A stretch of DNA of 60,232 bases, counting the filler, from Dugesia japonica (lineage: Eukaryota): NCBI GenBank assembly GCA_001938525.1. It is 5 parts of 5 records of this genome, joined end to end, with 100 filler letters (N's around TTAATTAATTAA, not from the genome) between each part and the next. Parts side by side here need not be neighbours in the genome. Positions count along the whole stretch, not along the records: positions 42,588 to 51,617 come from MQRL01648218.1; 4 more parts are not named here. One strand, given 5' to 3'. This document shows, in pieces, positions 1 through 58,700 of this stretch; within the stretch, counting starts at the first letter, position 1, and every line of letters starts with the position of its first letter. Made by a program: the position numbers and the translations under genes. Under the pieces are notes generated by a model. The model searched no databases, was not told the DNA's origin, and worked only from the letters and a program-made list of their open reading frames with translations.

Positions 1-128
1 CTACGAACGATGAGTCATACTTATGACTCATTTTCCTTGTTCTAGGCTTCCATGAGTCATACCTATGACTCATCATCATAGCTCTAATTTTCTTCGTCGG
101 CGGGGGGGAGGGGTGATCCAGTGCGCCA

Positions 129-3293: not shown

Positions 3294-6200
3294 GTATTAT
3301 TACATAATTGTTATAAAGTATATTATGGCAATATTATCTGTGTATTATTTTTCTTCTTTAAATTCAAAATATTTGCTAATTATAATGTAAAATATGTTAG
3401 TTGAGTTTGGTAAACTCATCGTATCATCAATATCAAAATTTGAATTCATTACAACGCTTTATTAAAATAAAACCTAAACATCATTAATTCTTTAAACAAA
3501 CAAATTTAAAATGTCACATTTAAAAACGGAAAATACTAAATATTTAATTAAATATATTTTTATATTTTATTATATTTAAATGATATTTGGATTTAAAAAA
3601 AATACAATAAAATAGATATATTTTATTCTTATAAAATATATTTGATTTTTTTAAAAAATATATTAAAATAAACTTCTTTTATTTATTCAATTTTATATTT
3701 TAAAAATCCTTAAATTTTAGTATTTTTCTGTATAAATCATTTTCTTGATACAATTTTAAATATGCTTTTGATTTTAATAAATTCCGTTCTCAAAAAATAA
3801 AAAATTTAAATCTATCTTTCAAAAAACTATCTTATAATAATATATAAACGAAATTGTTCTCAGTTCAAAATTAGTTCCTTTTAAAATGTTTTTTTTCCTG
3901 CTCATGTAATTTATTTGAATTATTGCAGTTTTTTAATATACTCCAACCTTATTTTGCGTTTTTCTCGAATGTGCCTCTGATAAAAAGAATACCATTTTTT
4001 CAATTTGCAGCGACGTCTTAAAAATTTTCTCTCAAAATATAAATGTGATTATGAAATCCAAGTGAGAAAACAATTAATTCAATATAAGAAACTTAAAATT
4101 CTCATTAAATTTTAGAAAATTATATTAGAATTTTGAAATTGTTATTTGAATTATATTTGAGTCAGAGCTGTGACGAAACCTGTGGTGATCCGTAAACAAA
4201 AAGTAAATTGAGGCCCCAGATTTATAATATAAGATAATTGTGTAAATTTAATATTATTAGACCCAATGGTCTTGATTTGAGTATAATTATCTTCATAGTA
4301 ATTAAATATTAATCTAATTAGCACAATAAATAATATTAAAACCCCACAACTTTATGGGATTTTTTACTTACTAAAAAATACAACTAAAAATCGTTTGATA
4401 TGAACATTATTTCTTTAGCCTATATTCAAAAGTTTGAAATGAACACTTTGAACATTTTTCTAATGACGACTGTTCACGTGAACAATTCGGAGCATCTAAA
4501 TAAATTGTATAAAATTTCGCACAAGATTTCAATAAATAGCCGTTACACACTTGGAATAAATTGACTGTAAAAATGCTGGGCTATAAAAGATGCAATTTTA
4601 TATATTGAAACAAAATTATGAAAAAAAGACTTCTCAATAGCTTTATCACAGTCTGAATTTTACGAAAGGGCATTCATTATAAATCTTACGAATAGACTAC
4701 TTAGTACCTGCTCGCATAATACTCTCTTTTTTTGCATGGCCTTAACTATCGGCCTCTATTTACCCGATGGTATTACTAAATGATAACACCAATTGGTATT
4801 CGTCGATTTTTCAAAGAACAAAGTTTTTTTCACTAAAAGCATGAATATACGAGGTCCAAGGTAGTTGCCTCTTTCTCCTCATTCTTAACACTAAGCCTGA
4901 TCAACAAAGCAAAATCGAGACACATCTTCTTATTCAGCTGAAGAAAACTCACTAAAAAGGGAAATTTTAAATAAAGGTTGTACTCTAAAGACTCTAAAAT
5001 TTGTTATTAAAATCAATACGCAATAAAATTTCAGCAAAATGAAATGAATTTTTAAATATGTTTGATTTTAATTTAAATAAATCAAAAATTTAAACTACCC
5101 CGAAGAAGATTGTTGAAATTTTGGATAACTAACAAAGAAATAATAAAGAAAAACAACATTTTGATTGAAGCTTTTAATTTAGTGAAATCTCAAATGCGAC
5201 CAATGATTAATCTAACGATTATTCTCGCAATAATTATAATTACACAAAACATTTTAGACAAATAAATAAATATAATATAATAATAAATATGAAAAATAAT
5301 AAAACATTAACACAATAAATAATAAATAAACATAATATATACTAGGTTGATTAAAAAATTATTAAAGTTTTTATTCAATAATTTCAAAAGCAAAGAATTC
5401 ACAAATAATAGTCATTCCTCAAAGTATAATCCATGATTGTCAATCACTTGAAGCCATTGTCAAACAATTTTTCAATGCATGGCCTTAACTATCAGCCTCT
5501 ATTTGCCCGATGGTATTACTGAATGATAACACCAATTGGTATTCGTCGATTTTTCAAAGAACAAAGTTTTTTTCCCTAAAAGGCAAAGGACTCGGAAGTT
5601 ACAGTTTTCAACTTCTTCTCCCAAGTGATACGTCTTACGTGAAAGAAATGTGCTAAAGAAAGAAACCGGTGAAAATTAGATTGCGCAAAGTCAAGGCTAT
5701 ATGCAAGGTGGGGAATGATTTCAATCACTGGTAGTTCTTCTAGCTTCTGGTTGATCGTACTCAAAATATGGCGAACGTGAAACTTTATTTACTGTATTTC
5801 AAACAGATTTTATTGTAAAAAAATAATTTATTTTGATGAAAAAAAATATAATATTTTTTGTGAGTTCAAGAATTTTTTTAATTACATATTTCTTATTATC
5901 GTAAATTTTACATTTTAATGAATTTTGAAATATTTTCATTTGTTCAATTCGAATTCCGCATGTTGTTATTCAAATGTAAAATTGAATCATTTACAAATCA
6001 CCCAAATTACAATTTTTAACGAAATACATATGGTTTTTTTCACAAAATATTGGGTTTTTCTGCTGACTTAATGTTTATTGGGCATAAGGCAAACTATTTA
6101 TTGATGTCACATATAAACATTGATTATAATGAAATGAAATTCATTTTGATTTGTTCTATTGATTGATAGTGTATATTTTAATAATTTTCCAAATAATTAC

Positions 6201-9200
6201 AAATTTAACATCATAATTAGTCTTATCAATGAGTCTTATACAAACCAGTTTAATTTTGATTTTATTTACGTAACTTCTAGAAATGGTAAAGAAGTACATA
6301 GATTTTATTGAACGTTTAATGTTATAAAATGTAATAATGAATTAAAATTTCTAGAGTTTTCGTTTTAAATACTTTCCTGTTGATATAAATTTTTGTCATT
6401 CAATTTAAAAATAATGAAATTTTGAAAATAATTAAAATAATGAAGCTTATAGCAGTTTCTTGAACTATTTTCGGCCACATAAGTACGATTCGAAATTCCT
6501 TTTTAAATTAAGATGAATCTTTTAATAAAATTTGAGAAATTTTGCTTTTTATTAAATATCTAGGTTATGGTTTTCTCCCCAATTTTCTCNCNACAATTTA
6601 TTCGTCTCTATTTCCTTCAGAACTTTAATTTATAAATTTTTGAACTGTCAGGATTGATAATTATTCATTTTCTGTCATTTCTTTTGCTGAGTTGTTTTGT
6701 TCGGAACTTTATCTTATTTTTTTTGTCAATTGTATGGTAATTGTTTGTCTCGGTTTACGGGTTTTTGTGTTGGAAATTATTGCCTGATCATCGTTGGTAG
6801 CAGTTTGATCTTGAAAGTTGTTTTTCATTTCATTATTAACTAGTTCTTTGGGAAAGTAATTTAACTTTCTTAATATAATAATTTGTATTTGTTAATATAT
6901 TAATTCATATTTGTAAATATAAATATTAAGCCATAACCCTGTATTATTAAGATTAAAATATGTTTTTGCGTTCTTGTAGTATTTGTCTTAATTCGAGAAT
7001 TTCGACTGTTCATTTTGAATTTACGAAGTTTTGAATTTTCTAAGATTGACAAATTTTTTAACTCAGCAATAATTTAATAACTTTATTTTTGATTTTCGGA
7101 ATAATTAAAAATTGGTTCTTTTTTTAAATATTTTAATTTAAAATTTTTTGGAGATTTCACTTTAAAATTATTATAATTTAGTTTTATATTTAGCCTAACT
7201 TTAGCCTATAAATTAACTCATAATAAGAACAATTTGTAAATATTTATTATTCAAATTAAAATTTCAGTGTTCTTCGGGGTATTTCGGTAATGCCCTAAGT
7301 CGAACTTGCAAAAAATGTGTTTGCAATAATTTGGGAACGAATTTGAATTCAAATGGAATTTGTAATCATGAAACAGGAAAATGCCCTTGTCTTCCAAACG
7401 TTATTGGTCAGCAATGTGATCAATGTCAAGACAATTATTTTAATATATCTTCAAAAATTGGTTGTTTGTCGTGTCAATGTGATTATCCAATCGGTGCAGT
7501 TAATAAGTCATGCAATCAAGTACTATATTTTTATGTTTTATTTAATAAATTATTTAAGTTGACTGGACAATGTTACTGCCACTCTACAAGAAGCGGTTTG
7601 AAATGCGATAGTTGTGAAGATGGATATTGGGGTGACCCTAAAACAATACAAGGATGTCAAAGTAAATGATTTTTTTTATTTACTTACTCCATCCAATATA
7701 AAAATAAAAGAAATTTTAAAAACATTAAAAAACCAATAAAATTTGTATTTTTCATAAAATGTTTATCTATATTAAAATCAAATCCAAATAAAAAAGTGGA
7801 TTTAATAAATTTAGTTTTAATTTACATAAACATTTAATCTCGTATATAATTGAAAAATAAAAATTTTCTTGATTTTTTAATTTTTTCAAAAATAAAATTT
7901 TTTTGGGATGGAAAAAAAAACTTGAAAAAATTCTTCTTTTTACTTTTCTTACAATTATTAACTGTTTNNGTTTCAATGTGAAATTATCAGGTACCTCTTT
8001 TTCTACTTTTATCTTATCTTATTTTATTTTGTGTTATATATTGAATGCCATTTAATTGCTAACTTGAATTCCAGGAATAGAACTTTACTAACATTGTCGA
8101 AGATCATTCTTAGTCAAGCTACTGGATCTGTTTTTTTACAAAGGGTTGCTGTTTCCATTATTCGAGTAGTTGTTTTTTTATCTATCATGTTACTTGTTAG
8201 TTTTGTTTGTTTTCTTCATTTAAATCAACTAAAATAAGACTTTTTATTCAATACATTTTTTAAAATACAAATAATTCTTATTTGAAAATTTTCTTGCTTT
8301 TTTGAATGCTTCTATCAACACTTGCCTTTCTCAATTTATGTTTCCAAAATAATACTAAATTTAAACAAATTATTTTAAAACATTTTATTTAATTATTTAA
8401 ATTATATAAAAAAAAATTTATTTAAAAATAAAACAATTCAAATTTATTTAAAAATAAAACAATTCAAATTTATTTAAAAATAAAANNNNNNNNNNNNNNN
8501 NNNNNNNNNNNNNNNNNAAATTTATTTAAAAATAAAACAATTCAAATTTATTTAAAAATAAAACAATTCAAATTTATTTAAAAATAAAACAATTCAAATT
8601 TATTAACAATTTTCAAAATTTTCAATTAAATTTTATATCTAAATTATAGAAACCTCCAATTATAAATTTGAATTAAAAGTTTTACATTACGTATTTATAT
8701 CTAAAATTCATTTAATAAATTTTAAAAATTTAGACTACTAATTTCTAAATTAATATTTAAAATTTCAATTTCATAATTTGCAATTTAACATTTAAAAACA
8801 ATTAAAAATTTACACTTTTTAAAAATACCTAATACTACTAAATAGGAATTACAGAAAAAAATAATTTCTTAACATTTTGTCTTTTTTTATCAATTTCATT
8901 TCAGCTTCGTTTTTCGATTTACTTGTATTTAATTATCCGGTATTTTTGGAGGATTTTTTTGAAAAAATACGCATATATTTAATGTCTTTAATCAAAAACA
9001 CCTTATATTTAATAATTGGATATCTTAATTTACATTAAACTTTTATTAACTCAGTGTGCAATTGCAATTCGGAAGGATCCCAGTATAAACAATGCAACAG
9101 AAACACTGGAGCATGTCGATGTAAACCGGGGATCACTGGACGTAATTGCAGTGAATGTATGAAAGGAACAGATGGGAAAATGCCTCATTGCAGTTCATGT

Positions 9201-12200: not shown

Positions 12201-15200
12201 ACATTGATTAGGAATTACAATGAACTTCCAATCTAATGTTACAAAATAAATTATTTAAACATAGTTATCCAAACTAGGGTGCGGAAATTAACGATTAACT
12301 AATTTATTAATCGATAAAATATTTAATATATTAAAAATGTTTTAATCAGTAGTTCTTTGATTAATTTTTACTTAATAACTTAATTAGGTCTTATATTTTT
12401 TGAAACAAACCTGTTTTACGATATGAATCATAGATCATAAAGTTGTATCAGGTTTGATGCGTTACGCATGAAATGAAAACACAACATATCATAAAATAAA
12501 AGGATATTTGTTATTGTTTCAAAATAAAGTTTTATTTTTTTGATTTAGTCTTGACCAGGTCTTTCAATAGTAGAATTCCATTTCAGTTTAGAAAGTATTG
12601 TTGAACAAAGCCGGAAAATAATTGAAACCTTTGACTTTTATTCAACCTTTTACTTCCATTGATGAAATATATTATTATGCATTTGTTTGTCAATATACAT
12701 TTAATCAATAAACATAAAAATAAATGGTCATAAAATTAATTAATAAATAATCAATAAGCATTATTATTGTTAGTATTAAGGATTAACAAGTATACAACAA
12801 TGGCGAATAATGAAAGTAACGTTTCTGTAAAACCTTTAAACGGAAAGTTGAGCAGGCATTTTGTTTTTAGGTTAACTGCTGATGACAAAGTAGAAGACGG
12901 AGAAAAATTTTCTGCGTTCACTGCAATAAAAACAGTTTGCTTTCCTTCGTTCAAATACCTCGCTAACTTACCATCTTCAGCACAAACATCCACTGTAGCA
13001 TCATGAAGTTGAGGCAAGCAACCAGAAAAAGAGTTCTCAAAAAAAAACAATAACCAGTTTCTTGTCGTTGAGGTCAAACAAACCTATAAGCGAAAAATTT
13101 TCTACCGACTTGAAATTTAGTATTGCCCAGTGGATTTCTAGCTCCGGACATCCACTGGGTATTGTGGAAGATGATGGCCTACAAACTGTATTACGTATTG
13201 CTCTTCAGAATCAGACTTATACTTTACTCAGTCGCCGTACAATTAATAATGTCATCTATCACATGTACAANGNAAAGCTGAAAGAGCTCAAAAAGGTTAT
13301 TGCAAATGTCTGTAGTATCGCACTCACTACAGACGTTTGGACATCAAACAACAATGAATCGTATTGTGGTTTAACGGGACACTGCAGTGCGTCCAACTGC
13401 AAAATTATTTCAGTAACATTAGGTTGCCTAGTTGTTGAAGACAAAATATGCTGTATTCTAACTGATAGTGCTCGAAATATGGTCGCTGCTATTGGGCGAA
13501 CGAATTACAATCACATACCATGTATCGGACACTGTCTGCAGCTTAGCATATTAGCGGATTTTAAGGCAGCTGACTTATCACCGCTTTTCTCAAACATTTC
13601 AAACCCAGCTCGGCTAACCCATTCGAACTAAAAAGTAGCCATGTCAGTTTCTCTCGGCAGATTATGACGTGTTCCATAAAATGCAGCAGGATGTAGTAAC
13701 TCGTTGGAACAGTACCTACCTGATGTTAGCCAGATTGTTGGATGTCAAAGAAGCAATATTACAGTATCACATTGATCATCCGAGAAACTACAGTAGACCT
13801 TAACTGATAGATTCTGATTTGGAAAAAATGGCCAAATATATGTCAGTCTTAGGTTCACTTGCGGATGCCAACGAATAGGTTAGGAATGAAAAATATGTGA
13901 CATGTTCTGCCGTTCTACCTTTAGAAGCCTTTTTGCGTAGACTGTTGAAAGTTAACGATGACGACCCAGGTTATATTGCACGATTCAAAAATGCAACGTT
14001 GAACGACTTTACAGGAAGAATCATAGGCATTGATTCTTTGCTAAAGTTGCAAATGGCTACGGTCTTAATGATCCGCGTTATAAGAAACTTACTTGCCTGA
14101 AATTTATTACCTGTAATTAATGCGACGACCCATTTCCATAAAGATATTCGTTCTTATTTCACTCAGTAAGTACTTAGTAAGAACACGTAGTAAATACAAA
14201 TATCTGGATCAATATTGCCTTTTATATTACATAATTGAGAATTTGGTATATCGGTCAGAGTTACTTCATTTAACAGACCCAAAATGTAGTTGGACAAATG
14301 AGACACGTTAACTGGATTCAACTTTATACTAAAATATGAAAACAAACAGTAAAACTAATTATAGTTATTTTCTTTTTTTATGATGTCAATATTAAGAGTA
14401 TTTTAAATTTAGTATCCGTTAACAATTTGTCCAATTCAAGTTTCATTAATCTGACCAACATTAAATATCCAAAAGAATTAAATGCAATATTTTCTAACAT
14501 TGATGAATATGTAAAATTAACCAAAGGGCTTGAAAAATATTTTCCAGATGGATTTACAGAAAAACTCAATAAAATGGAATTAAAGTTATCCACTTTAAAG
14601 TAATTGTTTTACAGGTTTTTTATAACTAAATAACAAATATTTTAGAANTAGTTTTCGCAAAATGAACAAAACTAACTTTGATATTAATCAAAACTCAATA
14701 AGCGCAATTGAAAATTCTACAGACGATGCTAAAAATTTGGTTTCTAAAAATAAAATCAAAGACATCAAAGGTAATTTCTTAAATTTAACATTCTATGTCA
14801 AATCTTTATAATTAGGTGCTTATAGTGAAATATTAAAGTCATTGAAAAGCGTTCATACAAACTTGGAAGATTCAAAAGAATTATTTAAGAAATTTGATGT
14901 TAAGAATTCAATTTTAAATAATAAAAATACAGAATTACAAGCGATTGATGTTGATTATATTAATGAAAAGAATCAAGAATTAATCGCATTAAAAAAGAAA
15001 TTATTTTCATCGATAATTACATACAATGCACTGGTAGGTGATTAATTTAACAATTTAATTAATTAAAATCAATTTAAAATTATAAGAAATAATAAAAAAA
15101 AATTATAAATCGCAGATTAATAAATTCGACTAACAAACAGCATTATTAATCAAAATAAAAAACATTCGAATCAATTATTGCGAGAATAATTGTTGAACTT

Positions 15201-18200
15201 AACCATTGGTCGTATTTGAGATTTCATTAAAATAAAGTAAAATTTGAATATCTATAAAACAACAATTTAATTTGATCGAAGCTATTAATTTATTTTAATG
15301 AAATTTTAATCAATGTATTATTTATATACAGGTTTGTTTATTACTGAAATATGAAATTTTTTAACTGTGAGGTGACGAGGTCATTGAAAACCTGTGCGGC
15401 ATTGCCTTTATTTTAAAAGAAATTGTTGTGATGATTGAAAAAAATAAAGTTCTTATTAACTCATTAGCTATTCTGGTTCTCAAATAGAGAAAAATTTTAG
15501 TTTTCATAAATATTGAGAACCAGGATAGCTAATGAGTTAATAGGAACAATAAGCATCTGTATCCACAATAAAAGTTTATTACAATCCCAAAACTGATGTT
15601 TTATGTAATGTTATTTTGATTAATTGATTAAATGATTAATCACATTGATCAGACCAAAATAGCTCTTCATTACCTTAACTACATAATTCTAAAAATTCTA
15701 GCTCTTTCTGCGCATTGGTTTATTAATCTTTGATAATAATTGGATAATCCGAAGAAACCTCGCAAACTCTTGATACATTTTGGTCTTTCAAATTTATTTA
15801 TTGCTACAATCTTACTTTAATCTGTTCATATGCCATTACTTGTAATGATATGTACAAGAAATTTAACTTCATTATTGAATAACGAACATTTCACTGGATT
15901 TCTCCAGAAAAATAATTTTTCCATTCAAGGTTAGACATGACACCAGTAATCTTTTGAACTAAGCATATTTCTACAGCAAACTCTATACAAAATATTTTGA
16001 AAAGTTAGAACTGAAAGAACAATTAATGGCGTTTGTAAAGAGGTTTTTTTTAGTTGCAGAAAAATTTTATTGGGGGAATGGATATGCGGAAGACGTTTGG
16101 ATACCACCTTGTACGGTAAAACTAACGAAAAAGTCAAATATTACATTTGTAATATTGAAGGAAAATTCGGTAGATAAAATAAAAAGAGAAAGCGATTGAC
16201 AAGAGCTTTAAGTATTTTGAACATTAAAGACGATCAATGGTTATTGAATATAATTAAAATAAAGAAGATATTTTCATGGCAAATAAATGGAATGTAAGAC
16301 GCACACATCTGAAAAAACACAAAATAATCACAAGTGGTGAACCAATCAACGTAAAACTGTACAAGTAACCAATGAACTTAGAGGCTAAAATTGAAGAAGC
16401 TTTCTAAGACCCTTTTGAAAATAATATTCTCCGAAAATGCAACTCTCTATGGAATACCGCACTGATTTGTATTTAAAAAAGGAGAATAAAGAAAAAGGTT
16501 TGGATTTTAGGCAATTGAATGCAGTAACGAAAAGACCAGCCTTTCTGATGCCTAGCTTTGATGAAATGCTGGACAAGTTGGATAAAGCAAAATAATTTAG
16601 TTCAATAGATTTAGTAAATGTGTATTTAAAAAAACACTTTCTTAGTTCGTTTTTGACCCATTTTTGTCAAAATAATTCTTCCCTAATAATATTTATTTCT
16701 TTAAAAAACCTTTCCACAGAAGTCGATTTGGTATTTATTTTGCGGAATTCCATGATTTCTTTAAGATCATTAATGTGCGAATTTAGTTTTTTATATGCTT
16801 TCCTCAATCTTTCTTCAAATTCAACAACGCTGATTCAAACTGCTTCATAAATTTCAATAAATTCCCTATTGGTCATTGTTTTGATTATAATCTTTATGGG
16901 TTTTCCTCGATATTTGCGTAATCGGAAAACTTCCGGCCATCCAAAATAAAACAAATGTATCCGAATAAATTCTTTCGTCATATAAATTTGTCACACTAAT
17001 AAACACACTAATAAATTTGTGTGTTTATTAGAGCATGTTACGTTAAAACACAAAATCACTTCCAATATTTATTTTAATAACAACAAAAAACTGCCTCTTT
17101 CTGATTCTTTTTTTATTATTTTTTACAGACCTGCAATGGAAGAAACCATAGTAATTGTTCTTCATTTTGTGGAGGTGTGGGATGTCAATCAAACCCGTGT
17201 TACAGGCAAATGCCCAAAAATTCTTATTGCATGAAAAGTAATGATATATTTTTCAATAAATTCGCTTGGTCTATACAGGAAAATCTTAATGAAGTCGATT
17301 CTTTATTGAACAAAATGACAAAAGAAACCTCTAGCAGATTGGATTCTGAAGTAATTTATATTTTAAATGCTTTTTATGAAAATTTCGCAAAGTTTTATTC
17401 ATAAATCTTTTAAATTAATGTAAATTTACTAAATTACTAATTTTATATTTTTGTTATCTAAATTTATATGCTCTTAGCAAACATTAAGAAAAAAACATTT
17501 ATGGAAGTTTGACACATAAAAACAATTTCCTTGAACAGCTAATATTTTTTATCGTATTTTATCGGAACTTTGTGTCAGAATTTCTAAAAACAATTATTGA
17601 TGAACATAATTAAACTATCTATGATGTAAACCTAAGAAAATGAAAATGAATATGGTGGTGTAGTATGAAAGCCTAATAATTGTAAATAGCAAACTAAGAT
17701 AACAGTGGTAGTATGTAATAAATCAAAATTTAAACATGATAAAAAAATTATAAATTTTATTAAAATTAAAATAAACTCTACGATCAAAATATTGTTTTTC
17801 TTTTTTAACATAATGTTTTTTAGTTCTTGATAGAATTTCGAATTTTCGACTTTGTCTTCGTCAGGAATTGTAATTGTAAAAATTATATCAGTTAACACAT
17901 TTTCTTCAAATTAATTATTTATATTACGATTTTTTACACTTTCTAAATGTGTTTACTGCGGTTTGGTTATTGTATTTTAATTATTTTCATTGATTGTTGC
18001 GTTTTTTGACAATGATGAACCTTCAATTATTAGTTTTACATAATTTTACTTTTTTTCAACAGTTTCTTTTGAGGTTTTAATTATTTTTTTGGTATTATTG
18101 TGTTTGCTGTAAAAATTAATAGTTTTTGATAATTTTTTATTTGCAAATTTCAATTTCTGTTTCTAAATTAGAAAATATAAGAAAATTTTTTAATTATTTT

Positions 18201-21952: not shown

Positions 21953-22042
21953 ACTTGTCTTCGTCAGAAATTGACTTTTTGAAACTAGAAATATAAAAAA
22001 GAAAGACAGTATTTTGATTGAAGCTTTTAATTTAATGAAAAG
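21953..22042. mobile_element. Penelope pseudo-LTR fragments in opposite orientations (half hammerhead on minus, downstream part on plus)
   Basis: cttgtcttcgtcagaaattgactttt matches ~44412-44437; attttgattgaagcttttaatttaatgaaa matches ~5158-5187. Confidence 0.65.
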
Positions 22043-24977: not shown

Positions 24978-25715
24978 GGTATACGGACAGTTCATCAACG
25001 GACTGTTCATCAAGAGGACAGTTCATCAACGGACTGTTCATCAAGAGGACAGTTCATCAACGGACAGTTCTTCAAGAGGACAGTTCATCAACGGACTGTT
25101 CTTCAACGGACTGTTCATCAAGAGGACAGTTCATCAANNNNNNNNNNNNNNNNNNNNNNNNNNNNNNNNNNNNNNNNNNNNNNNNNNNNNNNNNNNNNNN
25201 NNNNNNNNNNNNNNNNNNNNNNNNNNNNNNNNNNNNNNNNNNNNNNNNNNNNNNNNNNNNNNNNNNNNNNNNNNNNNNNNNNNNNNNNNNNNNNNNTGAC
25301 AATCTAGGAAAGTTTAATACTATTGTATATAAAACTAGGAAATTTTATATATATTGCGAAATTATCCAAAGATTATAATCAATTGGAATAGCAAAACAAT
25401 TATCTAAGATAAATAGTTTATTGAAAAGAATATTTACTACAATTATAGGTTACTAAAGCCATTATATGTTTTTAATCTGTATATTGTTTAATATAATATT
25501 CATGTGTTCTTTGATTAACAAATCTTTATTGTTTGCGTCATTGAAATTTCGCAGTATAAATTAAATTTCCTAGTTTTATATACAATAGTATTAAAATTTC
25601 CTAGATTCTCAGTTTTTTGATGAACAGTCCGTTGATGAACAGTTCTCTTGATGAACAGTCTTCTTGATGAACAGTCTTCTTGATGAACAGTCCGTTGATG
25701 AACAGTCCTAGATTC
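24978..25715. mobile_element. Foldback/MULE-like non-autonomous element; long TIRs built from 15-16 bp tandem units (ggac[a/t]gttcatcaa[c/ga])
   Basis: Left array 24985-25137 is mirrored by 25618-25708; inner inverted repeat 25297-25345 / 25563-25611; degenerate TSD ggtatatc/agtaaatc. Confidence 0.85.
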
Positions 25716-26639: not shown

Positions 26640-27240
26640 TATTTTTATACACAAATCAATATGAATCAATAATGTAATTGCCATCGTTATCGATAACCAC
26701 TTTCCATCTGTTGACCGAAGCTTCAATTCCATCAGCAAAACATTTGCTCCGTTTTTCGACGAAAAACGAACCCAATCCCGATAATACTTCATCTTTATTA
26801 TTAAACACCTTCTCCCTAAGGAAAGGCTGCAAAGAACGGAATAGATGATAATCTGATGGTACAATGTCAGGAATATAAGCCGGATGAAACATCACTTTCA
26901 AATTTAACTCATTGATCTTTTGTAGAGTAACTCTTGAAAAGTTAAGAAGGATAACACATTTTCTCTTAATTAATTTCGAGTGATTCATTTTCAGTGCTTC
27001 AACTAATCGGTCTAATTGGTGAAAATAAATATTTGAGTAAATAATATGTTCATAATCAAAGTCCTCCCAATGCACGATACCTTTCTGGTACCACCAGAAA
27101 AAAAAACAAATATTTATTTGCGTTGACATTTGATCTTGCCGCCGGAACTGTAGTTTCTCAACTAGAAAACCTACTTTTCATCAGAAGTAACAATTCTCTT
27201 CAAAGATGGTTTCTTTTCATTTCTAAAAATGTTCGAGTTT
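26640..27240 (-). mobile_element. Mariner transposase remnant
   Basis: SLKRIVTSDEK; WWYQKGIVHW..HPAYIPDIVPSDYHLFRSL..RWKVVIDNDGNYI. Confidence 0.92.
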
Positions 27241-33724: not shown

Positions 33725-34610
33725 TCAGCCAAAACACTTAAAGTACATGTGCAGTAATCTCCAGTGCACTACGTAATTGAACTTAGTAATTAAAAAATGA
33801 ATCAAGATTAATTTCTTGACTTTGCTTCCTGAAAAACATTGATGTTCAGCTGCAATGGGTAAGTCACATATATATTCATGAAGTTCGTTCGTAATCTCAA
33901 TGTCAACTTTTAGAGTGTATCCATATTGTAACAATTTGAGATCTACATATTTACATTCTTCTAAACCTAATTCTAATCCACAATAAACCCATTGAAAATC
34001 TTTGTATGGTAACTTCTGGCTCAAAGCCCAACCATACAGGTTATTTATATCGATGTATAACAACTGTGTTTTCAACTGAAATAATATGATGTTTGTTGAT
34101 TAAGGTGAGTTCACCTCTAATTCCACCTTCAAAAAAATATACAAGTTTTTATCCGTCAAAAGCTCGATGGGTTCGTTTTAAGTCATAAAAGCAGATGCTC
34201 AGCTCATACCTGGAATGCCAAATAAATTTAAGGGTTACAGACGGTTGCGAGCTAATGACTTAACTCGGAATTGCTGAAAAAAGTCATCTAGAAGAAAGAC
34301 GTCCAACTTCATGTTCACCAGTATATAGTCCAGTAAGTTTTGATATTTCAAGATTTTCCACATATTCACCACTTTTTTCATTTTCTTCATCACTAACTCC
34401 ATCACATTTTGAGAGCATTATTATTAACCTTTGTATTAACCAGTAATCGTAAACTAGTAGCGTGATTGTATGGAAAATTTCTCTTTGTCCTTAAAATTCT
34501 GCTGTCAAAAAATTCATGTGATGTTTAAAATGTTGTTTTCATAGTTTTAACATCTTAATTCAGAGATGAATTGATAAATTGAAATGTATCAATAAATCTA
34601 ATGGTAGGTG
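33725..34610 (-). mobile_element. Polinton/Maverick (adintovirus-like) protein-primed DNA polymerase B pseudogene fragment
   Basis: In order: IRFIDTFQFINSSL, KLDVFLLDDFFQQFR, YIFFEGGIRG, LLYIDINNLYGWALSQKLPYKDFQWV, GYTLKVDI, NYVVHWRLL; stops and frameshifts present. Confidence 0.85.
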
Positions 34611-42587: not shown

Positions 42588-44299
42588 TTATAAACGTCAA
42601 GTTAATGTTCACTTAAATTTAACAACAATTTATTTAAAGCTTCAGGTAATACTTCGGTAATTTATTACATAATACATTAAGAAATCAAAATTTCAATGCA
42701 TAATTATTAAAATACATTAGGTTAAATTTACATGAAAATGACAGAACTACTAAATAAGTGATAAAAAATGGTGTGCTTTATATCCTTATATGCTTTATAT
42801 ATATATAAAATATATAATATAATATAATATATAAAATAATATAATATATTATAATATAATAATATAATATAACATAGAAAATATAAAATTCTTTGGTTTA
42901 TTAAGTTATAAATTTTAAAAATTTAAACATAGGGTTATTTATTCGATTATAAATAATAGATTACATCAACTCGTAGCTAAAGATTATATTTAAAAATATT
43001 AACACGTCAGATAAACAAATTAACAACTAATACAATTTAATAAATAAATTGAATATGTATAAACCGAAAACAGATATTCCACTCTAAAATATTAATTGTA
43101 TTTCAAAAATAATTTCATTGGTTTGTATAAAGTCATCTAAATTATTAATGAAAAGAACAAATCCAAACATGCAAATACCATAAGTTATTTAATTGAGAAA
43201 ATTATAATTTAAATAATTATAAACGCTCAACAATTTAAATTATCTGATGATTTTATGAAAACTATTTTTAGCAACAGTTCTTTATCTCAATAACCGCCAC
43301 GCACTCATCCATATCGAAATGTATGCCTTGATAAAATATAATAAATTAGTTAATCACTTATTTGATTTATTTATTAAAAAATACATCCTTCAGAAAAATT
43401 AATAAGAATTTGAAGACATCACATCGCTTATCAATAATTTTTAGTAAATGCCGCATACATATACTTCTATTTATAATCTAATAAGGTATTTTTACATTTT
43501 TATTACAACTCTTGGCCAATAGAATTAAATATACATAAATAAAATTTGTTGATATTCGAACATATACCACTCTTAACAATTTAACCACTGTGTGAAACAT
43601 AAACAATTCAATTTAGATTTGTTCATTGCGGTGTGTGAATCATACTTGTTTCACTCAAGGAACTTTCGTAGTTTACCTATGATTGGAATCTGAATTAAAT
43701 GCTTATGGATAATAACAATATAAATTGGTTCGGGAATCATATATTTTTAATGCTATTGCAGTCAATATGTCAATATTAATTCGTTATTGTTTTTAATATT
43801 CTCTTTAACTGAGAAAATTTTGAAATTAAAAATCATTTAATTCGAAATTTTTAATTTTTAATTGGTAAGTTGATAAATAATTAATACCTGATGACATTAT
43901 TTACTCAGTGAAAAATGAAATGTAGATGCAAAATTATTGTCTATTTTGTGTTATTTTTCCAATTGAAATTTTAATATCACCAACAATGAAAAAAATTTCT
44001 CTTTTTATTTACTAAAATCTTAAAGAGAAACAGCTGTGAATAAGAATATTAAATTTTTTTCTATTAAAAATATCAAATTGTTTGTATTTGTTGGATATTT
44101 TTTCTTGGTTTATTTATAAAACAAATTGTTAATATTTTTAGTAGAAAAAAATATTATTTGCAGTTAAATATGATCGAATTAATAAAATTATGAAAATATG
44201 ATTAAACTTTGAAAATAAATTAATTGATAATCTTAATAATAATAGTAATAATAATAACAATAATAGTAAAAATAATAATTATTATTTTACAATTACAAT

Positions 44300-46297
44300 T
44301 ATTGCGAGAACAATTCTTGGACTTAACCACCGATCGTATTTGAGATTTCATTAAAATAAAAGCTTCGATCAAAATTTGTTTTTGTTTTTGATGATAATTC
44401 TGATTTTCGACTTTGTCTTCGTCAGGAATTGACTTTTAATTTTTTTATATTTATTTTTTTTAATTGGTTAATTTTTTTAATTATTTAAAATTAAATTGAT
44501 TTTAGGTTTATCATTTTTAATTAGTAATTCTTCATGTTTTTCCTGTAAAGTGTGGAAATGTAGCCTGTTTCTAGTGTTTTCCCTATTATATGATGTTGTT
44601 CTAGTGAAATTTTAAGTTTTTGTTTGAAGATTTCACTTTATTTGCTTGAGATGTTCCTTAATTCTTGTTCAAATGGTTCCACATGTTTCACTATATAAGT
44701 TTCCTTAAATATGGTGCATGTTATTTTACAAGTGACATTTTTCTTATTAACCTATATTAATACCAACACAAATAAATTTTGGACCACAAAAGTTTTGTGG
44801 TTTCTGTAATTGGATGCCCAAAGGTTTTGTAAGTAATTCTTGGATTGTTCTTGAGTTCATATTTTTTTATTATATTTTGCATGATTTCTCATTAATAAAA
44901 AGTAATGTAATAACTGTGTTTGTTTTTGATTTAATTCTATTATATTTTGTATTCGGAGATAAATATTTTGATATTATTTTATTTGGTAACCGTTATTTAA
45001 GAATTTATCTTTTATCAACTTGAAAGAAATCAATTTCATTTCTTCATTTGAAGATAGTTGAATTCTTTCANNNNNNNNNNNNNNNNNNNNNNNNNNNNNN
45101 NNNNNNNNNNNNNNNNNNNNNNNNNNNNNNNNNNNNNNNNNNNNNNNNNNNNNNNNNNNNNNNNNNNNNNNNNNNNNNNNNNNNNNNNNNNNNNNNNNNN
45201 AGAAAAGGAATCTGAAAGTCAAATTACTTCTCTAAAGTCAATTTAATGTTACCATTAATACTATTGAAATTTCTAAAATTTTATCTAAGTAACACTGAAA
45301 ATATCATTTATGTATCTAAACCATAGATGAATTTTCCTGTTTGATTTAAGAATTATTTGATTTTCATTGAATTTCATGAAAATTATAGCCAGAATGGGAG
45401 ATAAATAGTTACCCATTAAAAAGCTGTTCACCGATGAAAATGCTATCAAAGAGACACAAATTAATTAAGACATTTGAAATCATTTTTTTGGTGATATCTG
45501 GAATATATTCTTTGTATCTTTCAAAGAAGTCACTTACAATATCAATGAAATTTTCAGATCCTTCAATTGGAATTTATCCATATATATTTGTTATATATAA
45601 TGAACCAAATTTATCGTCAGTCTTCCATCATAATTTTTAATTTGTTCGAAAAAATTTTAACTATTCTTTAAATTTGCCGGTATGAAATTTAATGGTGATT
45701 TTAGTATATCTACCATAAGTTTGCATAATGCAGTACAATGAGTGTCAGAAGCGTTAACAATAGGTCTTCCTTTCACTGTGGTTTTCTGGTTTTTAGGAAC
45801 ACAGTACATCGAGGATGGAACTGGTTCATGACATTTGACTGTTAAAAGTAAAGATGTTATTGGGTCTTCATATTTTTTCCGAAATTTGAATTAATTGTTA
45901 ATTGAATTTAATTTCTTTTGTAGTTAATAGTCTTTTNNNNNNTGTTGTTTCATAATTATTTTACTGTTCAGAATAAATGCATTGTATGTCTATTCAGATA
46001 AAGCTACCAATTTATTTGATTTTGTCTATTGGTGTAATGATAATTGATTTTAAATATTTAATTTCCTTAATAATTTGACTTTTATCAGATAAGATAAAAA
46101 TACTAGGATCAGGTTACATTTCCACACTTCAAAGGAAAAAACATGAAGAATTACTAATTAAAGAAAAACCTAAAATCAATGTAATTTACAATAATTAAAT
46201 AAATTAACCAATTAAAATTCAATAAAATAAATTCCAAAAAATATTTCTATTGTAATAATAAATATTGATTAAATAAAAAATTCAATCCCTGACGAAC
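44300..46297 (-). mobile_element. Penelope-like retroelement (RT + GIY-YIG), 5'-truncated, with an inverted copy of its 3' end
   Basis: IIITPIDK; PSSMYCVPKNQKTTVKGRPIVNASD; WFRYINDIF; FLNNGY; KNVTCKITCTIFKETYI..ET..TRIKEH; KHEELLIK..PKIN. 46085-46297 is an inverted copy of ~44415-44595. Confidence 0.9.
44396..44430 (-). ncRNA. Minimal hammerhead ribozyme motif in the Penelope 3' pseudo-LTR
   Basis: aauuc CUGACGA AGACAAAGUC GAAA AUCA gaauu; perfect 5-bp stem I; U16.1 appears mutated to C. Confidence 0.6.
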
Positions 46298-46643
46298 NNN
46301 NNNNNNNNNNNNNNNNNNNNNNNNNNNNNNNNNNNNNNNNNNNNNNNNNNNNNNNNNNNNNNNNNNNNNNNNNNNNNNNNNNNNNNNNNNNNNNNNNNNN
46401 NNNNNNNNNNNNNNNNNNNNNNNNNNNNNNNNNNNNNNNNNNNNNNNNNNNNNNNNNNNNNNNNNNNNNNNNNNNNNNNNNNNNNNNNNNNNNTATGACT
46501 TCACAAAATTATATCATAAATAGATTAGATGGACCAATATCGTAAATTAAAAAATTATATTAAATCGTAATCTTTAAGTTTATATAAGAAATGAATAATT
46601 ATATCAAAATTTAATTTATTTTTCAAACATTCAAGAATTTAAA

Positions 46644-49794: not shown

Positions 49795-51612
49795 CAATGA
49801 ACTCAGCTTAAACCAAGCATTCAAGGGATCGAATTTTAAGTTCGTTATAACCGGAAGTTCGGTTTAACCGGGTTTTGCATATAAAAATGATAAAAATTGT
49901 TTTTTTTATATATAATATGGATAAACTATATTAAAAGAATATTTGTTTTATAGATATATTTTAATAAACATAAATCAATAAAATATACATCTACAACACC
50001 ATTATTTTTTTTTATTAGAAAATCAGTAATCTTTCTTTGGACTTTATGTCTTTAAAATATTCTTCGTTTCCAAATCATCTTGCAACGCAAATACACTTGC
50101 TTTTATCTCCTCTGATGGCATTTCGAAACCATAAATTTACTAATAACATTAATAGCATTTAATGCATCTCTCAAGTCAACCACCTTTAAAGTAATAGTCT
50201 CTTCTCCAGTATCGTCGATTAGTAATGGTTCATCAGATTCCATACAAAAATCCTCGGTTTTTTGAACATCTTTATCGATTTCAAAATAGCTATTTATTTC
50301 AACAACCGAATTTTAAAAAATGGTTGAATCATATTTAAAGATTCCGATAAATTGCTGTCTTTTAGAGGTAATTTTGTATCTTTACTTTNNNNNNNNNNNN
50401 NNNNNNNNNNNNNNNNNNNNNNNNNNNNNNNNNNNNNNNNNNNNNNNNNNNNNNNNNNNNNNNNNNNNNNNNNNNNNNNNNNNNNNAGAGTTATTTTAAA
50501 TTCTTCATCATTATCAGCCGTATGTATCATTTTAGATTTTAATGATTTTCTATTTTTCTTTAAAGTTTCTTATCACTCCTTGGTCAAGTGATTGTAAAAT
50601 GCTCATTGTATTCGACGGCAAAAACACCAATTTAATTTGGGTCAACATATCGTTTATATTTGGATGAGTGGGGCAATGGTCGACCAATAATAATATTTTT
50701 CTACCTCCTTTTCTTCTAAGTTCTGAATCTCATCGGATTAATTCATTTTTAAAGACACTGGAAGTCATCCATATAGTATTTATATTTTTAGTATTTATAT
50801 CTCGTCAAATTTTGATTTTTAAAACATCTCAGATTCTTACTTTTTCCAATAATTAGAGGCTGTCTTTTTTCTACAGTCATGCCTGCACAAAAAAGCACTG
50901 TTATTCTTTCTTTTGATAGCTTTCCGCCGGTACATTTTTCGCCTATAAATCCATGAGTTTTATTTGGAGTAACTTTATAAAATATCCTAGTTTCATCTGT
51001 ATTAAAAACATCTTTAAAAACATTTCTTAAACGCAGATATTCATCCTCAACCCATGATTTAACAGCGTTTACATCGACTGATTTTGCTTCCTCTTGTATT
51101 GAACCATAAAAAATGGAGTCTTTTATTAATCGGGAAATCCAACTGCTTGAACATTCAAACCCGTTTATTCCCATTTCACTTGCTATCAATGTAGCTTTGC
51201 TTTTTAGCATAAATCCTTCAATGGGTATATTTCTTCATCTCTGAATCTTGAACCATGTAAAAAGAGCGGTATCGATTTCTTCATACTTGGGGCTTTTCAC
51301 TTTTTTGATATCACTTCTTCGTTCGATGAAAACTTTAATTTCTTCTTTGGTTTTCCAAATACCACTAACAGTTCCGGGGGTAGAATTGTATCTTTTCACC
51401 AATTCTTTTTGCTTTTGACCGAGCTCAATCGATTGTATTATTGACATCTTTTCTTTTAAAGACAAAGTTCTTCATTTTTTTGGTTGCATTTTGTGGTTAA
51501 TATTTTCAAATTTTTAATTTGGTTTAAAAATCTTCGGTTTAAATGAAAAAGAATAAATAAATTATTGATTATTGTTCGGTTTAAACGAATTTGTTATAAC
51601 CGAATTATACTG
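49795..51612 (-). mobile_element. pogo/Tigger DNA transposon, near full length, disrupted transposase
   Basis: HTH-psq LSLKEKMSII..; CENP-B HTH EEIDTALFTWF..PIEGFMLKSKA; DVFNTDETRIFYK..GGKLSKERITVLFC..PLIIGKSKNLRCFK; TA-flanked CAGTATAATTCGGTTATAAC end. Confidence 0.93.
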
Positions 51613-55700: not shown

Positions 55701-58700
55701 GTGGAGAAGCATTTTCAGAGCATGCAGACCTTGGTAAATATCTAATTAATTCCTTGAAATATCGTAGACTAAACAAATCCTCAGTTTCATTTTTTTCCAA
55801 AGTTGAAAAATCAGCATATAATAATCTGCGTCACCAGTTAACGAAGGAAAAACTTGTCAAATTCCTTTTACAAAATTTAATAGACGATAAAGAAGTTAAA
55901 AAGAAAATAAAAATGCGAGATATAGAAGATATTGAAAAAAAGAAAGAAGTTATAATTAAAATTGATAGATTGAAAAAGGAAATGGAACCAGAATATGGAA
56001 TATCAGAGTTGGAGAAAAAAAATTACATATGTAGCATTAGCGTGTTAAATTCGAAATTCAAATTAGTAAACCAAGACTCAATGGAAATTTAAGTCAAAGT
56101 AAAAGTTATGAGCAGAAATATGATTCCAAGATATATCGAGAAAATAGCGGAAATTATATGAGAGGATATTATGAACCCAATGTTCAAACTTTCAGAGTGA
56201 GAAAATGTTGGGCATGTAGAGAAAAAGGTCATATACGCTCACAATGTCCTAATGTTAAATGTTCGCTTTGTAAGAATCCAGGACATTTCCGATTTCAATG
56301 CCATGAAATTAATCCTTTTGAGTGATATAATTGAACAATTTTCAGAAATATTTATGAAAGATAAAAGGGATTTAGGTAAGACAACACTATTAAAACATGA
56401 AATTGCTACCTACGTTGATCCAGTTGTAGTAAATCCTAGGCGACAATCTATTCATTTAGAAGATAAAATTAACAAGGCTATTTTAGAAATAGAAAAGAGT
56501 ATAATTAAATAGTGTGATTCTGAGTTGAATAGTCTGTTAGTTTGTGTTTGTAAGAAAGACATTAGAATTTTCTTAGATTTTAGATTATTTAATAATATAA
56601 CGGAGAGACCATTGTTTCCAATACCAAACATAGGAGAAATGCTTGACATTTTGAATGGATCAAAATAATTTACAATGATAGATTTGGGTAATGCATATTA
56701 CCAAGTAGAACCAGAGGAAAGTTCAAAATACAAAATGGCATTTTCTACAAAGTTTGATCAATTTTACTTCTACCGAATACCATTTGGAATGGCTGCAGCA
56801 CAAGCAACATTTAAAAAATTAATGACAAAAGTGTTAGGACCCTTAAATTGGGAAGAAGCAATTTTTTATCTTGATGATATACTGATATTTTCTAAAACTA
56901 AGAAAGAGCATACAAAAAGATCGGAAAATATTTTAATCAAATCAGAAATTCAGGTTTGAAATTAAGTTCTGATAAATATGTATATATGAAAGTGAGATTA
57001 AGTTTATGGGTCATATAATTTCAAAATATGGTTTAAAAACAGATCCAGAAAAGATTAAAGCATATTTAAGAATTTGAACCAACCTAAGTGTTTGAAAAAA
57101 CTTCATGGATTTTTAGGGCTTACAAATTATTAAATAATATTCAAAACACTCAAGAATAGTAGAAAGTTTTTGTGGAAACAATAAAAATAAATTAATTTGG
57201 TCAGATCAATGTAAACAAAGTTTTAATGCTTTAAAACGAGAATTATTGAGGGTTTCTATACTTATTTATTCAGAATTATCTAAAGAATTCATACTAGATA
57301 GAGATGCTAACTTGGTCACAATCAGTGGAGTATTATTAAAGTTAGATGAACAAGGCAATGAATGGGTTATAGCATATGGATTAAAAGCAATGAGTAAGCA
57401 TGAATTAGATTATTGTATAACCAGAAAAGAACTTCTAGCAATATATTATTTTACAGAACATTATAAACACTATTTATACGAAAAAACAATTTAAATTTCG
57501 AACTGATCACAAAGCCATAACTTTTAAGATTAATACACAATTCCAGACATGGATCAATTATTTAAGTAGTTTGGATATGATTATGGAATACAGAAAAAGA
57601 GAATTTCATTTAAATGCTGATACAATGTCGAGGAATAATTGCGAAACATGTATTCAATGTCAAATAAATCATGAGAATGCGAAAAAGGGAAAATGAAAAC
57701 TAACGTATTAGCAATTGAGTTTAAAACAAATGGTAATAAATTGCAAGAAAACTCTGAAGAAATTGATTTTATAAAAAGTAACTTAAAAATGGTGAAATGA
57801 ACTCAAAATTTAAGTTTTCAAATGGTATCATAATGACAAATAATAATAAATTTTAAATGCCTTTAAAATGCAGAAAATTATTTGTAAGAAATGAACACNN
57901 NNNNNNNNNNNNNNNNNNNNNNNGAAAAATGGCAGCTCATATAAAAGAAAATTATGATATGGAAGGTCTAGAAGAAATTGTAAAAGCGGTTACTCAAAGT
58001 TGTAGAAAGTTGTCAATTAAGAAAAACACAGACAACTCAAACAAAAGAAAAATTATTAGTATTCCAGTTGATGACATCTTTGAAATAATTCATATATATT
58101 TTTGTAGTCCTTTAAAGAAAACTTTATATTGGAAACAATACATTTTAGCTATAATTGATAAATTCAGTAGATTTATATCTCTCAATGAAGTTTCACATCA
58201 AGATGAAAAAACCACTGTTAAAATATTAAAAAATAATTGGATTTTTAAATATGGTGCACCGAGAATAATACATACAGATCGTGAAAAATAATTTGAATTA
58301 AATCTATTCCAACAATTAGCTAAAGAATTTAATTGTGAAATCCTATACTCAAGTCCATATCATCATAGTAGTAATGAAATAATTGAAAGACAATTTCGAA
58401 CTATAAGAGATACAATTAATATTAGTTTACAGGATAAGGAAGTGCAGGACTGGGCCGAAATTTTACCAGAAATAGAATTTATGTTGAACACCACAATTCA
58501 GAGAACAACGAATGTATATCCAGCTGAAATAGTTTTAGATAGAAATGATAAAAAAAATTTAAATGAAAGAAATCTAATGCATAAAAGAATAATAAACAAT
58601 TTAAATAACTATGAAAATTCCAAAAATTTAGAAATGACTAAGGATAATATTATATTTTTATATTGACCTTTATAAGTGGACAATTTCTTAAAGAACGGAA

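Follow-up and report, generated by a model that had tools for sequence, protein, structure and literature searches.

The 35-nt motif at 44396..44430 on the minus strand of the analysed window is very probably a decayed copy of a minimal hammerhead ribozyme (min-HHR) from the terminal repeat (pLTR) of a Penelope-like element (PLE), whose intact copies would cut RNA inefficiently and as predicted dimers. The window, the whole stretch of DNA that was analysed, is 60,232 nt long and consists of five joined stretches of an AT-rich animal genome (24.9% G+C), that of Dugesia japonica. As predicted from its sequence, the motif is an ordinary member of the published "minimal hammerhead" class at the lower size limit of that class. 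A first-pass annotation had proposed that a Penelope-like pLTR carries a minimal type I hammerhead here, and both the ORF context and the fit to the published descriptor bear this out.

Motif copies in the window

The focal copy was identified by direct reading and by a profile. On the minus strand it comprises the 5' strand of stem I (44430-44426), a CUGACGA box (44425-44419), an extra A (44418), stem II with its loop, GAC/aaa/GUC (44417-44409), GAAA (44408-44405), A-U-C (44404-44402), an A at H17 (44401) and the 3' strand of stem I (44400-44396). The initial reading of this copy and of a second one at 17834-17869 (-) was exact base for base. The AAUU palindrome that had been ascribed to the focal copy is not there: the sequence is A-A-U-C-A, with a C in place of U16.1 at 44402, so that the palindrome is broken. 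The second copy, 17834..17869 (-), has an intact core from C3 (17864) to H17 (C, 17840), an AAUU palindrome, a UUC triplet and a 3-bp stem I; it is a solo pLTR fragment on a different stretch from the focal copy. For this copy, the cut predicted earlier 3' of the C at 17840 falls at the right position.

Within the window only 17840-17864 satisfies the published min-HHR descriptor, and the focal copy fails it. The hammerhead numbering and the requirement for U16.1 are established knowledge, consistent with the NUH rule. Siblings of the focal copy read GAAA-AUU-A or GAAA-UAU-A where it reads GAAA-AUC-A, and its only nearby partner is an inverted half copy, so it has no partner for a tandem dimer. 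Lacking both U16.1 and a partner in the same orientation, the focal copy is likely an inactive, mutated remnant that is unable to cut. Cutting after AUC in a shifted register was considered and rejected: the A that follows would then lie opposite C2.1, opening stem I at the junction.

The profile was made from 84 fetched genomic copies, and the best scores of shuffled sequences were 3.2-5.0 bits. It scored 62.9 bits at 44348-44435, 51.7 bits at 17765-17871 and 26.4 bits at 5099-5185. The last of these belongs to a decayed motif (5096-5125) followed by a pLTR leader (5096..5241, +) that is 83.7% identical to 44387-44291. At 21955..22037 (-) the 5' half of a motif (21955-21977; 12.9 bits with the full profile, 17.3 with a core profile) is accompanied by an inverted leader arm at 22004-22037. 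A fold-back pLTR remnant at 15173..15310 (+) has a direct arm that begins inside the motif and retains only the 3' half, from about 15239 (17.1 bits at 15239-15292). The short copy at 46284-46297, beside an N gap, was missed by the profile; it is backed by tblastn and by an inverted repeat (44439-44580/46242-46097, 83.9%). The first-pass annotation had counted about six copies: those at 44396, 17834, 5096, 21955 and 46284 stand, whereas 6990-7022, which scores 3.7 bits, at the level of shuffled sequence, and has no CUGANGA, was discarded as noise, and the remnant at 15239-15292 had been overlooked. The copies are spread over three of the five stretches and are therefore not neighbours. An Rfam scan of the window gave no match to a hammerhead family at E values up to 10.

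The carrier element and other features of the window

The focal motif accompanies a 5'-truncated, frameshifted Penelope-like ORF at 44504..46089 (-). The ORF was found by tblastn (main pieces at E 9e-56 to 8e-17) with P0001, a full-length relative of 843 aa that is 76% identical to family locus L126. By tblastn, the reverse transcriptase (RT) part of the broken ORF covers 45200-46089 (-) and the Zn-linker and GIY-YIG endonuclease part 44504-45069 (-); the Pfam domains RVT_1 and GIY-YIG were matched on P0001 and on family loci. The rest of the pLTR, 44280..44395 (-), consists of a leader, in which a TTGATCGAAGCTT stretch is conserved, together with the first ORF codons in degraded form. On the 5' side an inverted copy at 46097..46297 (+) comprises the ORF end, the 3' UTR and the first half of the motif (46284-46297), where it is cut by an N gap (46298-46493). 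An inverted partial copy on the 5' side is the usual PLE layout (Craig et al. 2021).

The motif lies about 75-110 nt past the ORF end and, in locus L084, about 50-60 nt ahead of ORF residues 2-48; it is thus placed where tandem units join. Solo fragments make up most of the genomic copies. Among 63 copies with enough flank, the 3' end lies 44-57 nt past the cut in 19 and 111-121 nt past it in 24; the remaining 20 have other end points or come from a subfamily that fails to align with the reference. In the focal copy the end lies at +121. A TTGATCGAAGCTT-like stretch is seen about 25-35 nt past the cut (44346-44375 in the window) in most fetched loci and subfamilies, and many copies end just past it, near the first ATG.

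Two other assignments of the element were considered. A non-LTR retrozyme consists of tandem non-coding units with intact type I hammerheads, and the focal locus is a truncated coding element. The sole clear hint of a retrozyme-like tandem is a pair of direct motifs of the GGC-ATA-GYC subfamily 359 bp apart, at 1523-1546 and 1882-1905 of locus L042, behind a PLE 3' end; this pair may form a short tandem or non-autonomous unit in which dimers could arise in cis. Membership in the Hydra clade was also rejected. According to Craig et al. 2021, PLEs of that clade have no CCHH in the endonuclease, a divergent RT4 and a hammerhead with a real stem III, whereas the present family has a CxxC..H..H endonuclease, an RT with MGNNLSP/YIDD and no stem III. 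The Hydra-type marks DKT and a CxCX5C linker were nevertheless noted by eye in P0001 and the family loci, and RT4/5 and the linker appear, by eye, to resemble Nematis rows. The protein possibly represents an unplaced lineage. In P0001 and loci L101, L127 and L131, DKT, KDHK and a CxCX5C linker occur alongside a CCHH endonuclease and an RT that is canonical and Nematis-like; DKT is also common to P0002-P0007.

Elsewhere in the window, a host gene exon with laminin EGF domains lies at 7217-7669 (+; E 7e-20). Remnants of LTR retrotransposons were found at 132-764 (-; aspartyl protease, E 2.5e-5) and 57857-58288 (+; integrase core, E 1e-6), and remnants of DNA transposons at 26659-27177 (-; mariner-type Transposase_1, E 1e-7) and 50791-51234 (-; a weak Tc5/DDE_1 match). 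Two further frames, which gave no Pfam match at E 0.01, look like fragments of a family B DNA polymerase (33728-34099, -) and a hAT transposase (12999-13628, +). A long hairpin at 15452-15545, with a sub-threshold match to Rfam mir-8517 (38 bits against a cut-off of 70), is probably a MITE-like inverted repeat. A tandem repeat of about 31 bp occurs in both orientations, at 24985-25137 and 25617-25709.

Genome-wide conservation and comparison with published hammerheads

The genome-wide pattern search suggested in the first-pass annotation was carried out with CTGANGANGACN{3,5}GTCGAAA and gave 10,723 exact matches in the 854-Mb genome; the reversed-pattern control gave 0. The layout common to the family is stem I (3-6 bp), CUGANGA, A, GRC-loop-GYC, GAAA, UAU or AUU, H and stem I. 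The continuation GAAA-WW-U-H was found in 9,694 of the 10,723 matches. The palindrome is AUAU in 5,397 matches and AAUU in 4,024 (together 9,421), which agrees with the earlier proposal that stem III is palindromic and would depend on a second copy. Non-palindromic one-step hybrids amount to 273 (9,694 minus both palindromes), compared with about 4,750 expected if the positions were independent. The 4-nt AAUU palindrome that had been put forward as distinctive is thus present, but AUAU is commoner, and a 4-nt palindrome is already described in PMC4209133.

Covariation in stems I and II, for which the first-pass annotation had suggested a test, was seen between subfamilies. The middle pair of stem II is A-U in 10,723 cases, G-C in about 640 (862 minus 222) and an A-C mismatch in 222; pair 4 of stem I is A-U in 35/51 copies and G-C in 8/51. 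The extra base after A9 is A in all 51 copies, and H17 alternates between C, A and U, with G in just 3 of 51. In a sample picked without reference to the core, mismatches at the extra base numbered 3/61. Stems I and II fall within 3-7 bp and the loop within 3-10, with covariation. Subfamilies hold the 11 core bases and exchange base pairs in both stems and in the palindrome. The copies are kin, so these counts represent a handful of subfamily events and not independent trials.

Single copies were sampled by a downstream anchor only, blind to the core. Of 1,723 tetraloop matches the first 100 were taken; the triloop sample, drawn from the first 100 of 2,095 matches, comprised 101 copies in the fetched loci. 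For the 61 triloop copies that extended sufficiently upstream, departures from the majority base amounted to 48/671 (7.2%) in the core and 19/305 (6.2%) in the flank, with 34/610 in stem I and 8/122 in the palindrome centre. The most variable sites (21-36%) were the loop (38/183), N7 (22/61) and H17 (13/61), positions that the hammerhead model leaves free, their variability being partly inflated by CpG decay. Hand-summed counts for 59 tetraloop copies were 62/649 mismatches in the core and 25/236 in the loop. Core, palindrome and H17 were all intact in 30 of 101 triloop and 20 of 100 tetraloop copies. Inserted copies decay neutrally, and a comparison of core with flank in single copies, which the first-pass annotation had proposed as a refuting test of the motif, is for this reason made at the wrong level: there the core is no better conserved than the flank, while constraint is visible between subfamilies.

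Published min-HHRs (Cervera and De la Pena 2014, PMC4209133) share as conserved features the extra nucleotide 9/10.1, the G10.1-C11.1 pair and the palindrome. The extra base after A9, which had first been taken for a peculiarity of this family, is therefore a feature of all min-HHRs. Nor is the 3-bp stem II with a triloop special to it, since the published descriptor permits 3-7 bp in stem II and loops of 3-10, and among the 56 tabulated motifs are one of 35 nt from C. briggsae, whose stem II has 3 bp, and one from a planarian PLE. Like the min-HHRs of metazoan PLEs described there, the family has CUGANGA with the extra base, G10.1-C11.1, GAAA-NN-UH and a palindromic 15.2-16.2, no helix III and a short stem I, and it likewise occurs as thousands of solo copies, in opposite-strand pairs and as several subfamilies per genome. 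Unlike in most min-HHRs, whose helix II is usually large, stem II here has 3 bp and the loop 3-4 nt, in the lower corner of the descriptor. A close likeness in these respects is to the PLE min-HHRs of C. briggsae and C. remanei (PMC4209133, Fig. S3), which have a 3-bp (C. briggsae) or 4-bp stem II and a total length of 34-35 nt; their loop has 5 or 4 nt and their palindrome is ACGU or AUAU, whereas the loop here has 3 nt.

For comparison of size, nine published rows were measured, the eight apparently shortest and the planarian one. The core, from C3 to H17, spans 25 nt in the triloop and 26 nt in the tetraloop form, compared with 27-31 nt in these nine rows; the ranking rests on the rows measured, and the data of Lunse, Weinberg and Breaker could hold equally small motifs. 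With stem I included, the shortest published motifs, at 34-35 nt, are no larger than the 35-nt focal motif. To call the motif one of the smallest is thus fair, while the earlier suggestion that it is more stripped down in kind found no support. The small PLE hammerhead variants of Lunse, Weinberg and Breaker, as summarised in PMC6765202, also have a diminished palindromic stem III and dimer cleavage. A literature search, with subscription papers mostly outside its scope, returned no title or abstract on a smaller natural hammerhead or on copies starting at the cut.

Footprint at the predicted cut site, proposed mechanism and alternatives

Intact copies would cut the element RNA about 50-60 nt ahead of the ORF start. 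Two of them, on one tandem transcript or on two transcripts, would pair their AUAU or AAUU segments to form the missing stem III and then be cut after NUH. Reverse transcription would begin in the leader or the first codons, mostly on uncut RNA; this placement is proposed because copy 3' ends cluster near +44..57 and +111..121. A minority of templates would already be cut, and their copies would begin at the first base past the cut. The anole element PAc (Poseidon; Anolis carolinensis; Frangieh et al. 2024, PMC11167929) offers a close parallel: its motif lies at the pLTR-ORF junction, two internal copy ends define its tail, and RNA-seq read ends are absent at its cut site. The two clusters of 3' ends seen here resemble its two internal reverse-transcription starts. 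It differs in that its ORF starts inside the motif and not about 50-60 nt past the cut. Cleavage of PAc was assayed, whereas cutting in the Dugesia japonica family is predicted from sequence.

Genomic copy starts were examined for a trace of such cutting by counting copies that depart from the family at each of the three bases upstream, with +1 defined as the first base 3' of the predicted cut. In the triloop subfamily with the AUC triplet, 45 rows start exactly at +1. Inspection by eye reduced these to 33 junctions, after removal of 7 rows (indels, internal deletions, stem-I microhomology) and 5 duplicates; in at least 9 of the 45 an inverted arm also stops at +1, with 1-13 nt of filler between the arms. 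Control positions in this subfamily gave 2 rows at -1, 1 at +6 (its own control giving 1) and 6 at -8, and 12 rows start at -2, one of them keeping C17. AATT context by itself raises junction counts. A site at -31 with an AATT context like that of +1, counted with the identical filter, gathered 31 rows over all triloop subfamilies, 13 of them with AUC-subfamily loops, which reduced to 7 junctions (minus 2 duplicates and 4 stem-I microhomologies). The comparison of 33 with 7 junctions corresponds to a 2.6-fold excess, approximately, after a rough exposure correction of 0.56 (p ~0.009). In the core-blind triloop sample a script placed 4 of 101 starts at +1.

Starts at +2 (75 rows) are as common as those at +1, many of them being AATT fold-backs or deletions, and microhomology of ATAT or ATTTG is used at many of the junctions between -5 and -1. 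Tetraloop subfamilies with the UUU triplet had no +1 peak, with 11 rows there and 17 at -8; none of the 100 sampled copies started at +1. The focal-type AUA/UUA subfamilies gave 38 rows at +1 with a looser two-base filter, about 23 distinct junctions, many of which adjoin (ATT)n repeats. The match between triplet and footprint is only partial, because a review counts AUC and UUC as active triplets but AUA as a slow one. In the tetraloop sample, starts clustered at the 5' edge of the motif (15 of 100 at -29..-23, compared with 4 at -22..-9); this cluster was discarded, being absent from the triloop sample in the position range fixed in advance (5 of 101 vs 3).

We take the footprint as evidence of moderate strength for cutting of a minority of templates; joining driven by AATT, or transcription that starts at +1, are live alternative explanations of it. 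Whether a hammerhead whose core has 25 nt does cut in vivo, with a few percent of insertions reverse-transcribed from cut RNA starting at the scissile bond and a footprint whose strength varies between subfamilies with different triplets, we judge to be evenly poised. If it does, the genome itself would be a read-out of ribozyme activity. With about 10,000 copies and a measurable excess of starts at the cut site, a family at the lower size limit sets a natural lower bound for the size of hammerheads and supplies ready material for testing. The class of motif is already known; the cut-site footprint is added evidence and the part worth following.

Against useful cutting it may be argued that the pLTR keeps a folded RNA element for protein binding, or as a signal for reverse transcription or translation, the +1 and +2 starts then arising from AATT end-joining or transcription start. 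The predicted stability is indeed weak: in a nearest-neighbour model, which is without core tertiary contacts, the active dimer fold lies about 10-21 kcal/mol above the dimer minimum-energy fold in 9/9 copies, and stem III formation is energetically unfavourable there. None of the listed data sets containing the stretch is recorded as RNA. In four raw RNA runs with the same species label, read ends did not pile up at the cut, three of which had a depth of about 200-400 over the motif. Reads cover the motif in both directions and are mostly less than 95% alike; this null result is weak because the libraries are fragmented and the copies diverged. Such an element would also suit the abundant +2 starts, often AATT fold-backs, the junctions gathered by the similar CAATT site at -31, and the microhomology junctions at -5..-1, which require an uncut template. 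Published min-HHRs cleave weakly in vitro (PMC4209133), and hammerhead mutants of the reconstituted anole element left insertion in vitro unaffected (PMC11167929), so that cleavage was unneeded there. We nevertheless consider this account unlikely, as a dimeric stem III is the sole role for a palindrome that is maintained in two versions, H17 is C, A or U and rarely G, +1 exceeds its matched -31 control, and inverted arms also end at +1 with short filler between.

Cutting by monomers, through tertiary contacts or with help from an element protein, would spare full-length elements, whose two copies lie about 2.7 kb apart (843-codon ORF), a costly dimer in cis, and would suit the solo fragments that predominate in the genome. 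It is very unlikely: stem III cannot close on two unpaired bases, the palindrome covaries, and the published min-HHR monomer was inactive while dimers and trimers cut (PMC4209133). That the motif is a chance look-alike spread by transposon copy number alone is hardly credible. Every match is a homologous copy and Rfam gave none, but the motif sits at the expected pLTR position with an exact fit to a published class, and the compensatory changes in three helices across subfamilies refute this reading. The balance thus remains with a PLE min-HHR acting, where intact, as a predicted dimer. Three junctions (G000:C248364, C539822 and C524436) carry short reiterations of the first bases past the cut and look as if the reverse transcriptase had stuttered at a template end.
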